Below, piece after piece: positions 34,014 through 39,165 of a stretch of 64,000 nt of DNA; position 1 is the stretch's first letter, and the number at the start of each line of letters is the position of its first letter. The stretch is from NCBI GenBank assembly GCA_000002445.1, contig CP000069.1, positions 1,184,001 to 1,248,000 on the forward strand, written 5' to 3'. The notes below the pieces were generated by a model. That model was not told where the DNA came from, made no database searches, and saw only the letters and a program-made list of their open reading frames with translations. The stretch is from Trypanosoma brucei (lineage: Eukaryota). The position numbers and the translations under genes are program-made.

Positions 34014-34551
34014 TACACTACAATGCAAACTAAAAAGATGTAATTTTTTTTTTAAATACAGAAACACAAATGAAAACAGCAAAAAAAACAAAAAAACTCA
34101 ACATTACAATGTAAAAAGAAAGATCCAGGCATAAACCTTGCTCAATTATGCATCCATTTCCCCTTAACTGTGTTCACCATTCCACACAATTCATATATTT
34201 TCCCCAATTTTCACTTACTCCCACTACCCTAGAATATTATTCCTTTAGGTACATAAAAATCAAATCTCTTACGTTTTGTAGCATTCTCTCCCCCTCCACA
34301 CATTACTGCTTAAATATCAAAGACGCAAAAGTGCTCATCGGATGTTCCATTCTACACATAGGGGCTTTGCCATCCCTCCTTGTCCGTCACACATATATTC
34401 TTAATCTGGTCTGCTAAGACAGTTTGTCGTAGCAATTGGTCATTCGAAACCAAAGTGCATTACAAAACAAGAGTACGGGTGGTCATAGTGCTAAATGCAG
34501 GGCTCTTACACCCGCACCACACGCCAAGCGCGTAGGGAGCGAGAACATCAC

Positions 34552-35631
34552 TTATAGCTTTGCTGCACGGTCCCGAGCGGCCATGTGGCGGACAAGATCC
34601 ACCACACGGTGGGAATAACCCCACTCGTTATCGTACCACGAGACAATCTTGAAGAAGCGACGTTCGTTGGGGAGGTTGTTCTGCAGGGTCGCCTTGGAGT
34701 CGTAAATGGAGCTGCGGCTGTCGCTGATGAAGTCGGCACTGACGAGCTCCTCATCGGTGTAACCGAGAATGTTCTTCATGTATGTCTTGGAGGCGCGCTT
34801 CAGGGCAGCGTCGATCTCCTTGATGCTCGTGTCGCGCGTCGCAATGAAGGTAAGGTCCACCACAGAGACATCAGCCGTGGGAACACGGAAGGCCATACCC
34901 GTAAGCTTGCCCTGAGTGCTCGGGATCACCATGCCGACGGCTTTGGCGGCACCAGTGGTGCTTGGGATGATGTTCAGGGCTGCAGCGCGACCACCACGCC
35001 AGTCCTTGACGGAAACACCATCAACGGTCTTTTGTGTGGCTGTGTACGAGTGAACAGTGGTCATGAGGCCAGTGGAGATGCCGAAGCCCTCCTTCACCAA
35101 CACGTGCACGAGTGGGGCGAGGCAATTAGTTGTGCATGAGGCGTTCGACACCACATGGTGTTCACGAGGGTTGTAGTCGTTGTGGTTCACGCCCATCACG
35201 AACGTCTTGGCGCCACCAGAGGCGGGGGCACTGATGACAACCTTGCGAGCACCACCACGGAGGTGACCCTCGGCAGCAGATTTCACTGTGAAGAGGCCAG
35301 TTGACTCAATCACATACTCCACACCAAGCTTTCCCCATGGGAGGTCCGCAGGGTTCCGCTGCGCTTTCACGCAAAGGATGCGGTGGCCGTTGACGACGAG
35401 AGTATCATCCTTCGCGACGGATGGCTTGCTCTTCGTAGTCGACACAGAGTGCTTGAACTTGCCGTGCACGGAGTCGTACTTCATCTGATAGGCGAAGTAG
35501 CGAGCGTCCGTGTTCATGTCCACAACAGCAACGACATCAATCTCATTCCCGAGGAGGCCGTCGTCGCACAGTGCCTGGAACACCATGCGACCAATACGGC
35601 CGAAACCATTGATGCCAACTTTAATAGTCAT
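34552..35631 (-). CDS. GAPDH: glyceraldehyde-3-phosphate dehydrogenase, glycosomal type, tandem copy 1 (359 aa)
   Basis: [15 protein letters not shown]ossmann NAD motif, catalytic [13 protein letters not shown]-terminal PTS1 -AKL; ATG verified 35629-35631; track ORF start 35793 is a GTG 54 codons upstream. Confidence 0.95.
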
Positions 35632-35685
35632 ATTCAAATTTGTTGTTAGTCTTTTACTTGTTTGATTAGCTCGGATAAATTCTGC

Positions 35686-35752
35686 ACCGCAAAAAGAAAG
35701 GCAGATACACGGGAAATAGGGAACGGTCAAAAAGGATGAAAAAAACAACGCG
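35686..35752 (-). promoter_or_regulatory. polypyrimidine tract plus AG trans-splice acceptor region upstream of GAPDH copy 1
   Basis: + strand purine run aaaaagaaaggcagatacacgggaaatagggaacggtcaaaaaggatgaaaaaaac (pyrimidine-rich on the transcribed strand) followed on the minus strand by gcAG ~50 nt before the ATG; kinetoplastid trans-splicing signal by established knowledge. Confidence 0.5.
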
Positions 35753-35897
35753 ACACTCATGGCAGGAGGGAGACGCAGAACAAAAACAACCACTCAACGT
35801 GCAGTCAGAGACTTCATACAGACATATATGCGTGGACGCGTTTGTAAACTTGTACCGTCGCGGTACCTCACGAACATTCTGCTATCAACGGGTGACA

Positions 35898-36563
35898 CTA
35901 CTGAGGCGGAAGGCTTAGGTTGACGCCCCCCGCAACGGCGCGGGCGGACGATATGAGGGTTGCAAGACTAGCGTACTCGTCATCTGTGGGGGCAGCCATA
36001 GCGGAAACCCTCCACAGCTTCTGCAGTGTGGGAAACCGTTCCTTGTGATGCGCACACGCCCCATCAACCACTGAACCAGCAGTGGAACTACTGAGTTGAC
36101 TTCCACGCTTACTATGGATGCCATCCAGAGGCGCGAGGTGGGCAGTCACAGCATGTCCCCCCGGTGGCCTTACACTAATTGAAGGTTCTAACTTTGCGCA
36201 AGCGTTCGGCAGTTGACGCAGCATACGATCGTTCATGAGTGTCTTCTGCAGCCCAATAGACCTGAGAGCGGGCATACAGTCCATAAAGCGAAGCAAGTAG
36301 AATCCCGCCTTGTTGGAGAGCGGATTGTTCGACAGGTCAAGAGAGACGAGTAGTGGGGAGTGCTCCACCAGTGTCTCACATATTCGGACGACGCTGTCAT
36401 CCGTTAGGTAATTCTGGGACAGGTTCAGCACCTGTAAACCAGAGCAGTGTCGAAGCACCGCATTCACCAGCGGCTGAATGTCATTCCTCCCTAGTAAACT
36501 CCGCGAGAAATCGAGTTTTTTCAACGCGCTTAAACCCTCTACCGTCTCCAATAGGTTTTTCAC
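35898..36563 (-). pseudogene. leucine-rich-repeat protein gene, 5'-truncated copy at the duplication boundary (no in-frame ATG before residue 94)
   Basis: Track start 36561-36563 reads cac (GTG) on + strand; minus-strand frame has a stop 6 codons upstream; the 216 aa from ETVEGLSALKK onward are identical to copy 2, which has ATG at the homologous position. Confidence 0.4.
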
Positions 36564-37153: not shown

Positions 37154-38233
37154 TTATAGCTTTGCTGCACGGTCCCGAGCGGCCATGTGGCGGACAAGAT
37201 CCACCACACGGTGGGAATAACCCCACTCGTTATCGTACCACGAGACAATCTTGAAGAAGCGACGTTCGTTGGGGAGGTTGTTCTGCAGGGTCGCCTTGGA
37301 GTCGTAAATGGAGCTGCGGCTGTCGCTGATGAAGTCGGCACTGACGAGCTCCTCATCGGTGTAACCGAGAATGTTCTTCATGTATGTCTTGGAGGCGCGC
37401 TTCAGGGCAGCGTCGATCTCCTTGATGCTCGTGTCGCGCGTCGCAATGAAGGTAAGGTCCACCACAGAGACATCAGCCGTGGGAACACGGAAGGCCATAC
37501 CCGTAAGCTTGCCCTGAGTGCTCGGGATCACCATGCCGACGGCTTTGGCGGCACCAGTGGTGCTTGGGATGATGTTCAGGGCTGCAGCGCGACCACCACG
37601 CCAGTCCTTGACGGAAACACCATCAACGGTCTTTTGTGTGGCTGTGTACGAGTGAACAGTGGTCATGAGGCCAGTGGAGATGCCGAAGCCCTCCTTCACC
37701 AACACGTGCACGAGTGGGGCGAGGCAATTAGTTGTGCATGAGGCGTTCGACACCACATGGTGTTCACGAGGGTTGTAGTCGTTGTGGTTCACGCCCATCA
37801 CGAACGTCTTGGCGCCACCAGAGGCGGGGGCACTGATGACAACCTTGCGAGCACCACCACGGAGGTGACCCTCGGCAGCAGATTTCACTGTGAAGAGGCC
37901 AGTTGACTCAATCACATACTCCACACCAAGCTTTCCCCATGGGAGGTCCGCAGGGTTCCGCTGCGCTTTCACGCAAAGGATGCGGTGGCCGTTGACGACG
38001 AGAGTATCATCCTTCGCGACGGATGGCTTGCTCTTCGTAGTCGACACAGAGTGCTTGAACTTGCCGTGCACGGAGTCGTACTTCATCTGATAGGCGAAGT
38101 AGCGAGCGTCCGTGTTCATGTCCACAACAGCAACGACATCAATCTCATTCCCGAGGAGGCCGTCGTCGCACAGTGCCTGGAACACCATGCGACCAATACG
38201 GCCGAAACCATTGATGCCAACTTTAATAGTCAT
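37154..38233 (-). CDS. GAPDH: glyceraldehyde-3-phosphate dehydrogenase, glycosomal type, tandem copy 2 (359 aa)
   Basis: Translation identical to copy 1 including -AKL; ATG verified 38231-38233. Confidence 0.95.
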
Positions 38234-38287
38234 ATTCAAATTTGTTGTTAGTCTTTTACTTGTTTGATTAGCTCGGATAAATTCTGC

Positions 38288-38354
38288 ACCGCAAAAAGAA
38301 AGGCAGATACACGGGAAATAGGGAACGGCCAAAAAGGATGAAAAAAACAACGCG
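38288..38354 (-). promoter_or_regulatory. polypyrimidine tract plus AG trans-splice acceptor region upstream of GAPDH copy 2
   Basis: Same sequence as 35686-35752 shifted by 2602 nt, one SNP (ggtc/ggcc). Confidence 0.5.
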
Positions 38355-38499
38355 ACACTCATGGCAGGAGGGAGACGCAGAACAAAAACAACCACTCAAC
38401 GTGCAGTCAGAGACTCCATACAGACATATATGCGTGGACGCGTTTGTAAACTTGTACCGTCGCGGTACCTCACGAACATTCTGCTATCAACGGGTGACA

Positions 38500-39165
38500 C
38501 TACTGAGGCGGAAGGCTTAGGTTGACGCCCCCCGCAACGGCGCGGGCGGACGATATGAGGGTTGCAAGACTAGCGTACTCGTCATCTGTGGGGGCAGCCA
38601 TAGCGGAAACCCTCCACAGCTTCTGCAGTGTGGGAAACCGTTCCTTGTGATGCGCACACGCCCCATCAACCACTGAACCAGCAGTGGAACTACTGAGTTG
38701 ACTTCCACGCTTACTATGGATGCCATCCAGAGGCGCGAGGTGGGCAGTCACAGCATGTCCCCCCGGTGGCCTTACACTAATTGAAGGTTCTAACTTTGCG
38801 CAAGCGTTCGGCAGTTGACGCAGCATACGATCGTTCATGAGTGTCTTCTGCAGCCCAATAGACCTGAGAGCGGGCATACAGTCCATAAAGCGAAGCAAGT
38901 AGAATCCCGCCTTGTTGGAGAGCGGATTGTTCGACAGGTCAAGAGAGACGAGTAGTGGGGAGTGCTCCACCAGTGTCTCACATATTCGGACGACGCTGTC
39001 ATCCGTTAGGTAATTCTGGGACAGGTTCAGCACCTGTAAACCAGAGCAGTGTCGAAGCACCGCATTCACCAGCGGCTGAATGTCATTCCTCCCTAGTAAA
39101 CTCCGCGAGAAATCGAGTTTTTTCAACGCGCTTAAACCCTCTACCGTCTCCGGTAGTCCCTTCAT
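38500..39165 (-). CDS. leucine-rich-repeat (ribonuclease-inhibitor-like) protein, intact copy (221 aa)
   Basis: LRR units LKKLDFSRSLLGRNDI, LQVLNLSQNYLTDDSV, LVSLDLSNNPLSN, LRSIGLQKTLMND; ATG verified 39163-39165 (MKGLPETVEGL); further in-frame ATGs at 39237/39240 give a 246 aa alternative. Confidence 0.55.
   Translation of the reverse strand: MKGLPETVEGLSALKKLDFSRSLLGRNDIQPLVNAVLRHCSGLQVLNLSQNYLTDDSVVRICETLVEHSPLLVSLDLSNNPLSNKAGFYLLRFMDCMPALRSIGLQKTLMNDRMLRQLPNACAKLEPSISVRPPGGHAVTAHLAPLDGIHSKRGSQLSSSTAGSVVDGACAHHKERFPTLQKLWRVSAMAAPTDDEYASLATLISSARAVAGGVNLSLPPQ

Follow-up and report, generated by a model that had tools for sequence, protein, structure and literature searches.

The glycosomal glyceraldehyde-3-phosphate dehydrogenase (gGAPDH) of Trypanosoma brucei is a studied drug target with solved structures, and the tandem pair of genes encoding it was reportedly published by Michels et al. 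in 1986 (EMBO J 5:1049). The same paper is cited in the reference list of PMC2289121. Here we analyze this locus in T. brucei, within a 64,000-nucleotide stretch (contig CP000069.1, positions 1,184,001 to 1,248,000 of the forward strand; the whole stretch is called the window below) that, judging from exact protein identity, is consistent with chromosome 6 of T. b. brucei TREU927, and where two near-identical units of 2.4 kb each carry a complete gGAPDH gene. The window contains the same locus as the T. brucei tandem pair represented by database entries AAZ11987.1 and AAZ11988.1, and nothing essential differs between them. The feature is thus a long-known textbook locus, for which both the observation and its interpretation are correct but already known.

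Comparable arrangements have been described in related organisms and for other genes. One report speaks of 'tandem copies of gGAPDH ... for each trypanosomatid' (PMC4106842), and the gGAPDH I and II genes of T. cruzi are known as tandem genes, with intergenic regions that serve as standard vector parts (PMC3812015). For T. brucei, the survey of tandem arrays by Jackson (2007; PMC1855330) deals with dosage and concerted evolution in arrays such as those of PGK, tubulin and the hexose transporter. Like the array in the window, these lie head-to-tail in a polycistron, their paralogues cluster by species and a gene dosage role has been proposed for them. Unlike them, the array in the window has just two copies. 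According to the same survey, brucei and gambiense copies are usually interspersed, whereas at the gGAPDH locus the TREU927 and gambiense copies are reciprocally alike. Neither GAPDH nor Tb927.6.4280/4300 is mentioned in the available portions of the survey's text and supplements.

Homogenisation of tandem copies is ordinary for trypanosome gene arrays. We conclude that the window very probably contains the published two-copy tandem gGAPDH array of T. b. brucei TREU927 chromosome 6, kept near-identical by recurrent gene conversion or unequal exchange.

Structure of the repeat and its junction

Comparison of the window with itself at a fixed offset, together with a whole-window self-BLAST, identified one repeat pair, at 34115-36549 and 36717-39151. 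The two copies are 2,435 nt each, align without gaps at an offset (period) of 2,602 nt, and are arranged head-to-tail on the same, minus strand; 36717-39151 is the upstream copy in the direction of transcription (copy 2) and 34115-36549 the downstream copy (copy 1). Each unit extends from inside codon 30 of a leucine-rich-repeat (LRR) gene to 437 nt beyond the GAPDH stop codon, and is made up of LRR codons 30-246, a 266-nt intergenic region, the GAPDH gene and 437 nt of 3' flank. The copies differ at 3 of 2,435 positions (99.88% identity). At all three mismatch sites (34267/36869, 35727/38329 and 35814/38416), the plus strand has a T in copy 1 and a C in copy 2. The 3' flank holds one of these sites and the LRR-GAPDH intergenic region the other two; the GAPDH coding sequence (CDS) and the LRR segment have none. 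Since this repeat is the sole self-match of the 64-kb window at E<=1e-10, a chance origin can be excluded. An earlier note on this DNA, made from the letters alone, had described two near-identical units spaced by 2602 nt over about 2.44 kb and had suggested comparing the window with itself and counting single-nucleotide polymorphisms (SNPs) between the units; the single pair with three SNPs bears this description out.

The near-identity is abrupt at both ends, dropping from 100% to background inside 2-3 nt. At the 2,602-nt offset, nearly all 50-nt blocks of 34150-36549 are 100% identical, while those outside, on both sides, lie at a background of 0.2-0.4. Of the two kinds of boundary proposed in the earlier note, the sharp one was read correctly. 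The one said to fade is in fact a sharp edge as well, beyond which there is at most a marginal residual similarity of the spacer that separates the two copies.

This junction spacer (36550-36716, minus strand) is 167 nt long and unique in the window. Local alignment of the spacer with either flank, and a BLAST search of the window with the spacer, gave nothing above shuffled controls. At the exact offset of the repeat, the spacer is 37.7% identical to 39152-39318, which comprises the 5' end of the LRR gene and sequence upstream of it (null 25.5 +/- 3.5%); a match this good is equalled at 33 of 63,486 positions (empirical p ~5e-4, ungapped). The first 100 nt of the spacer gave 39% (p ~0.002), and a gapped global alignment p ~0.008-0.015. 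Even-numbered neighbouring offsets are also raised, so part of this signal is supplied by alternating purine-pyrimidine tracts, and the in-frame translation of the spacer has 4 of 30 residues in common with the LRR N-terminus and two stop codons. These comparisons are no more than suggestive of the spacer being a decayed, unconverted remnant of the LRR 5' end and the region upstream, that is, the end of the original duplication. If the spacer is indeed a decayed part of the unit, its ~62% mismatch is as saturated as that of neutral sites compared between species, which would make the event an old one. The spacer also contains a short polypyrimidine tract followed by AG (CCTCTTTTGCTTTTACAG), and a longer polypyrimidine tract with an AG is found just past the downstream copy, ahead of the next gene, which encodes a zf-CHCC-like protein. 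Judging from these motifs, each GAPDH gene may have comparable processing signals beyond the 437 nt that the copies have in common.

The exact protein encoded by the window genes is also encoded on four other contigs. In T. b. gambiense DAL972, both copies are present with a period of 2,602 nt and with edges and spacer as in the window, the spacer differing at 3 of 167 nt. In the T. equiperdum OVI assembly, a scaffold gap of 10 N coincides exactly with the upstream edge of the repeat and is followed by 32 nt of the 3' end of a unit, the complete spacer, one unit and the downstream flank. One Logan contig (ERR7929157) runs from the GAPDH gene of a first unit, across the spacer, to the LRR fragment of a second, and another (SRR2089768) from a GAPDH unit into the first 58 nt of the spacer. 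A unit-spacer-unit junction can exist only where there are at least two copies. The occurrence of the spacer junction in these four other assemblies thus shows that the duplication is real, and contradicts the alternative, raised in the earlier note, that it might be an assembly artefact.

Homogenisation of the two copies

The unique junction is common to TREU927, DAL972 and T. equiperdum, indicating that the duplication predates the divergence of all three. Independent evolution of the two copies since that time predicts that variable sites will group them by position, with the upstream copies alike and the downstream copies alike. We therefore compared the two TREU927 copies with the two DAL972 copies, all four taken from consensus assemblies of a diploid organism. 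Eight sites are variable. Four of these (unit positions 52, 1770, 2172 and 2212) separate the genomes, the two TREU927 copies having one state and the two DAL972 copies a different one; the remaining four are singletons, of which three belong to the upstream copy of TREU927 and one to the downstream copy of DAL972, and none of the eight is position-specific. The paralogues differ at 3/2435 positions in TREU927 and 1/2435 in DAL972, compared to 7 and 5 of 2435 for the positional orthologues, and the flanks of the two genomes differ at about 59 of 8,972 nt (0.66%, obtained by subtraction). Collapsed or partial contigs of other strains show one or other of the same two haplotype states. This site pattern supports concerted evolution of the copies through ongoing homogenisation. 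It is in line with the ongoing gene conversion proposed in the earlier note, given that DAL972 shares the unit, junction and spacer.

A very recent duplication, with too little time for the copies to diverge and no need for gene conversion, would also fit the presence of just three differences in 2,435 nt and the sharp edges of the repeat. We consider this very improbable, however. T. b. gambiense, T. equiperdum and two further read sets have the unit with the same breakpoints and the same 167-nt spacer, paralogues are closer to each other than positional orthologues (3 and 1 vs. 7 and 5 differences), and four substitutions are shared by the two copies of a single genome. The ~62% divergence of the spacer, if this is decayed unit, points the same way, matching saturated values between species. 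We find it harder still to believe that purifying selection on two functional genes, rather than recombination, keeps the copies identical. Selection would account for the absence of differences in the GAPDH CDS and for the purely synonymous differences between T. congolense paralogues. However, the uniformity of the unit extends well beyond what the protein constrains: paralogues differ at 0/199 four-fold degenerate sites in T. brucei, 0/194 in T. vivax and 6/198 in T. congolense, the 266-nt intergenic region and 437-nt flank have 3 differences in 703 nt, and the LRR fragment, which has neither promoter nor ATG, is identical. These site classes are near saturation between species (0.49-0.60 of four-fold degenerate sites differ between any two Trypanosoma species). 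Given that four-fold sites, non-coding parts and the LRR fragment match the CDS in uniformity, protein selection is not the cause of the identity.

The idea that a single GAPDH gene was wrongly duplicated during assembly has the least to recommend it, and we give it almost no credence. It could draw on the scaffold gap exactly at the repeat edge in T. equiperdum OVI, on the single GAPDH copy in the assemblies of T. theileri and Leishmania martiniquensis, and on a chromosome-level assembly of T. b. equiperdum (GCA_003543875.1; L002), which has a single unit (9083-11517) and no spacer. Against it stand the unit-spacer-unit junction in DAL972, T. equiperdum OVI and the ERR7929157 contig, and the three copy-specific SNPs in the window, which speak against a computational copy. 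Two tandem genes had, moreover, reportedly been demonstrated by experiment in 1986, and the error expected for near-identical repeats is collapse, in the opposite direction. The single unit of GCA_003543875.1 may itself reflect assembly collapse, or else a real two-to-one contraction by unequal exchange. It weighs against a two-copy array kept alike by recombination. Mis-assignment of reads between near-identical 2.4-kb copies, for example in the Sanger-era DAL972 assembly, could mimic or exaggerate identity within a genome. With only three differences between the paralogues, neither tract boundaries nor the direction of conversion can be read from them.

Recombination between the two copies of an old tandem array nevertheless remains by far our preferred explanation. 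A 2.6-kb segment (from LRR codon 30 to 437 nt past the GAPDH stop codon) is found twice, head-to-tail, within one minus-strand polycistronic unit, with the 167-nt spacer between the copies. The duplication is older than the diversification of the T. brucei group. Both genes encode the same 359-aa enzyme, with predicted delivery to the glycosome by a C-terminal type 1 peroxisomal targeting signal (PTS1; -AKL), in keeping with the glycosomal name that PDB and UniProt give this protein. Because trypanosome protein-coding genes have no individual promoters, the second copy would most likely serve to raise the dosage of this very abundant glycolytic enzyme. The copies, including their non-coding parts and the LRR fragment, are homogenised, as the pattern of sites above shows; as the molecular route we infer either recurrent gene conversion or unequal exchange via a three-copy intermediate. 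A two-to-one contraction would be expected to remove the spacer permanently.

The encoded enzyme and the surrounding genes

The GAPDH genes are located at 37154-38233 (upstream copy) and 34552-35631 (downstream copy), both on the minus strand. Each consists of 359 codons plus stop, and their CDSs are identical. Both products match the Pfam domains Gp_dh_N (PF00044, E=3e-31) and Gp_dh_C (PF02800, E=5e-61) above gathering scores, and both contain the catalytic cysteine motif S-x-A-S-C-T-T-N, which aligns identically with the solved enzyme. The product is identical at 357 of 359 residues to PDB entry 2X0N (T. brucei 'GAPDH, glycosomal'; 800 bits). The next best PDB matches are the glycosomal enzymes of T. 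cruzi and Leishmania (744 bits for T. cruzi gGAPDH, 1K3T); the cytosolic trypanosomatid entry 4P8R reaches only 361 bits. Departures from UniProt P22512 and 2X0N are limited to two residues (N152D and Q157H, alignment positions), which look like strain differences. In both copies the C-terminus is -AKL, which has the PTS1 form [SAC]-[KRH]-[LM]. Orthologues end in -AKL or -ARL, and an AKL tag has been used experimentally as a PTS1 that directs reporters into T. brucei glycosomes (PMC11381906). The locus is also syntenic with the gGAPDH loci of five other species. By these sequence comparisons, the window genes are type I phosphorylating GAPDHs, orthologous to the glycosomal and not the cytosolic isoenzyme, and the description in the earlier note of a glycosomal GAPDH of 359 aa with a terminal -AKL in both copies was accurate.

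The glycosomal enzyme also has close relatives among bacteria. Bacterial type-I GAPDHs are 75-78% identical to it over 98-99% of the length (~620 bits), and come from Fibrobacter, from Brevinematales/Thermospira (including complete genomes of 2.4-2.5 Mb) and from metagenome-assembled genomes of Clostridia. Eukaryotic cytosolic GAPDHs in PDB score only ~390 bits against the window GAPDH. This difference in score (~620 vs. ~390 bits) suggests an inter-domain gene transfer involving the glycosomal isoenzyme; in the literature that we found, transfer is mentioned for the cytosolic isoenzyme only.

The TREU927 database entries AAZ11987.1 and AAZ11988.1 are longer than the product described above, at 402 aa each, and are one residue apart. 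They correspond exactly to the open reading frames (ORFs) at 34552-35760 and 37154-38362, respectively. Their 43 extra N-terminal residues (35632-35760 and 38234-38362) come from translation of the polypyrimidine tracts and AG ahead of the real ATG, while all orthologues, as well as the crystallised protein, start with M[TGP]IKVGING. The gGAPDH model of DAL972 in the database is also 402 aa long. The 43-residue extension is likely an annotation artefact. The single T/A residue difference between the entries results from the mismatch at 35727/38329; since the 402-aa models appear to be over-extended, this difference would be spurious and the true products of both genes identical. The extension falls in the 266-nt LRR-GAPDH intergenic region (38234-38499, minus strand; duplicate at 35632-35897). 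Long polypyrimidine tracts occur in this region, as does an AG (...CTTTCTTTTTGCGGTGCAG) located ~55 nt before the GAPDH ATG. By analogy with trypanosome mRNA processing in general, we presume this AG to be the spliced-leader acceptor.

The 29 ORFs in the window that reach 230 aa or more all lie on the minus strand, and neither Rfam families nor tRNAs were detected in scans of its full length; no RNA gene is therefore hidden in the unit. The whole 64-kb window is inside a single polycistronic gene cluster, as judged from the ORF strands and these empty scans. The transcription order around the repeat is DUF2817, complete LRR gene, GAPDH, 167-nt spacer, LRR fragment, GAPDH and zf-CHCC-like gene. 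Both outer genes are syntenic anchors: the upstream neighbour is the DUF2817 gene (39573-40772, minus strand; 399 aa counted from Met24 of the ORF) and the downstream neighbour the 236-aa zf-CHCC-like gene (33303-34013, minus strand), whose ATG is 101 nt past the repeat edge and which serves as an anchor in every species compared.

The complete LRR gene (38500-39240, minus strand) encodes 246 aa and has its first 89 nt outside the repeat. Its 5'-truncated counterpart (35898-36549, minus strand; codons 30-246, 652 nt) is identical to the complete gene over its length, lacks codons 1-29 together with the ATG, and has no other ATG before residue 119. LRR residues 1-29 are moderately conserved in the full-length orthologues (247-268 aa) of eight other Trypanosoma species. 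The internal copy is probably a dead fragment, or pseudogene, carried along in the unit. The earlier note had rightly placed most of an LRR gene in each unit, but had it downstream of GAPDH; as the genes are on the minus strand, it is upstream (5') of GAPDH.

At the LRR fragment, the DAL972 annotation has just a 128-aa ORF (35898-36284, minus strand), corresponding to the C-terminal part of the truncated LRR. The same annotation includes a 114-aa ORF (36675-37019, plus strand) that lies antisense across the edge between spacer and unit. Both gene models are probably spurious products of the duplication junction. We dismissed the plus-strand ORFs in the unit, one of 184 aa antisense to GAPDH and the other this 114-aa ORF, as artefacts of the antisense strand or of the junction, as they are without family support, no individual searches having been made with them, and the real genes are all on the minus strand. 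Beyond the DUF2817 gene, a 444-aa ORF at 41180-42514 (minus strand) has no Pfam match and contains a 'CVCVCVCVYV' stretch derived from (TG)n/(CA)n. Gene calls in the corresponding interval of related assemblies are limited to a 117-aa LSM-domain gene and one of ~180-213 aa, and the 444-aa ORF is probably not a real gene.

The locus in other trypanosomatids

T. vivax, T. cruzi, T. theileri and T. congolense share the conserved gene order DUF2817 - (RhoGEF) - LRR - GAPDH - zf-CHCC, and L. martiniquensis has the same order without the LRR gene (one assembly per species was compared, and several of these are short-read collapses). T. vivax has a spacer-less tandem with a period of 1,676 nt and 99.8% identity, starting 231 nt after the LRR stop codon. 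In T. cruzi Brazil A4 the period is 1,590 nt, the identity 99.2% and the start 180 nt after the LRR stop codon. In T. congolense IL3000 (L012, 1-3087), the unit starts at codon 128 of the LRR gene, includes GAPDH and ends 578 nt past the stop codon; the spacer is ~36 nt long and the period 2,361 nt. Two junctions, 98.5% alike, are present on this contig, so that there must be three or more GAPDH copies unless alleles were mis-joined. Copies within the species are 98.5-98.8% identical. Comparison with a second T. congolense sequence (L009, 1179-3503) revealed 27 differences, the 6 in the CDS all being synonymous. From the single GAPDH copy in the T. theileri and L. martiniquensis assemblies we do not conclude that these species have only one gene, since assembly collapses tandem copies that are identical.

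Tandem copies that are nearly identical are thus a general feature of Trypanosoma, but their breakpoints differ. The pairs of T. cruzi (gGAPDH I/II), T. vivax and T. congolense resemble that of T. brucei in their synteny and in the near-identity of the copies. They differ in the extent of the unit, which is without LRR sequence in T. vivax and T. cruzi, has a shorter LRR piece in T. congolense (from codon 128) and starts at LRR codon 30 in T. brucei. A separate observation concerns the second copy of T. cruzi Brazil A4 (L007, 12685-13766, a long-read assembly), which was recovered by tblastn as two segments (residues 1-142 and 147-360). This frame break is either an indel error or the mark of a pseudogenised copy.

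Differences in start and end, spacer and period among T. brucei, T. congolense, T. vivax and T. cruzi raise the possibility of separate origins, in which several Trypanosoma lineages acquired or rebuilt the tandem state on their own, each time with particular breakpoints and followed by local homogenisation. This would concern the origin of the array only, and is compatible with recombination keeping the T. brucei copies alike. We take it as a serious contender that falls a little short of convincing us. Differing edges can also stem from a single old duplication if the dispensable LRR fragment later suffered deletions and conversion boundaries shifted, T. brucei and T. congolense (both with an LRR piece in the unit) may share one event, and the comparison is between single assemblies of which several are collapsed. 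More tentative, and in our view rather doubtful, is a scheme in which the two-copy gGAPDH was created or rebuilt independently in each lineage and homogenised so fast that even the T. b. brucei and T. b. gambiense copies are reciprocally alike; the T. brucei spacer would be the part of an initially perfect 2 x 2602-nt tandem that escaped conversion and became saturated.

The analysis has little consequence beyond confirmation of a classic locus. Mildly new are the site-pattern evidence of homogenisation after the brucei/gambiense split, the finding that repeat breakpoints differ among Trypanosoma species, and the apparent over-extension of the 402-aa models. These results should be of use in annotation, short-read mapping and knock-out design at the gGAPDH locus. 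Were independent rebuilding of the array in different lineages to prove true, it would suggest that two or more doses of gGAPDH have repeatedly been selected for.

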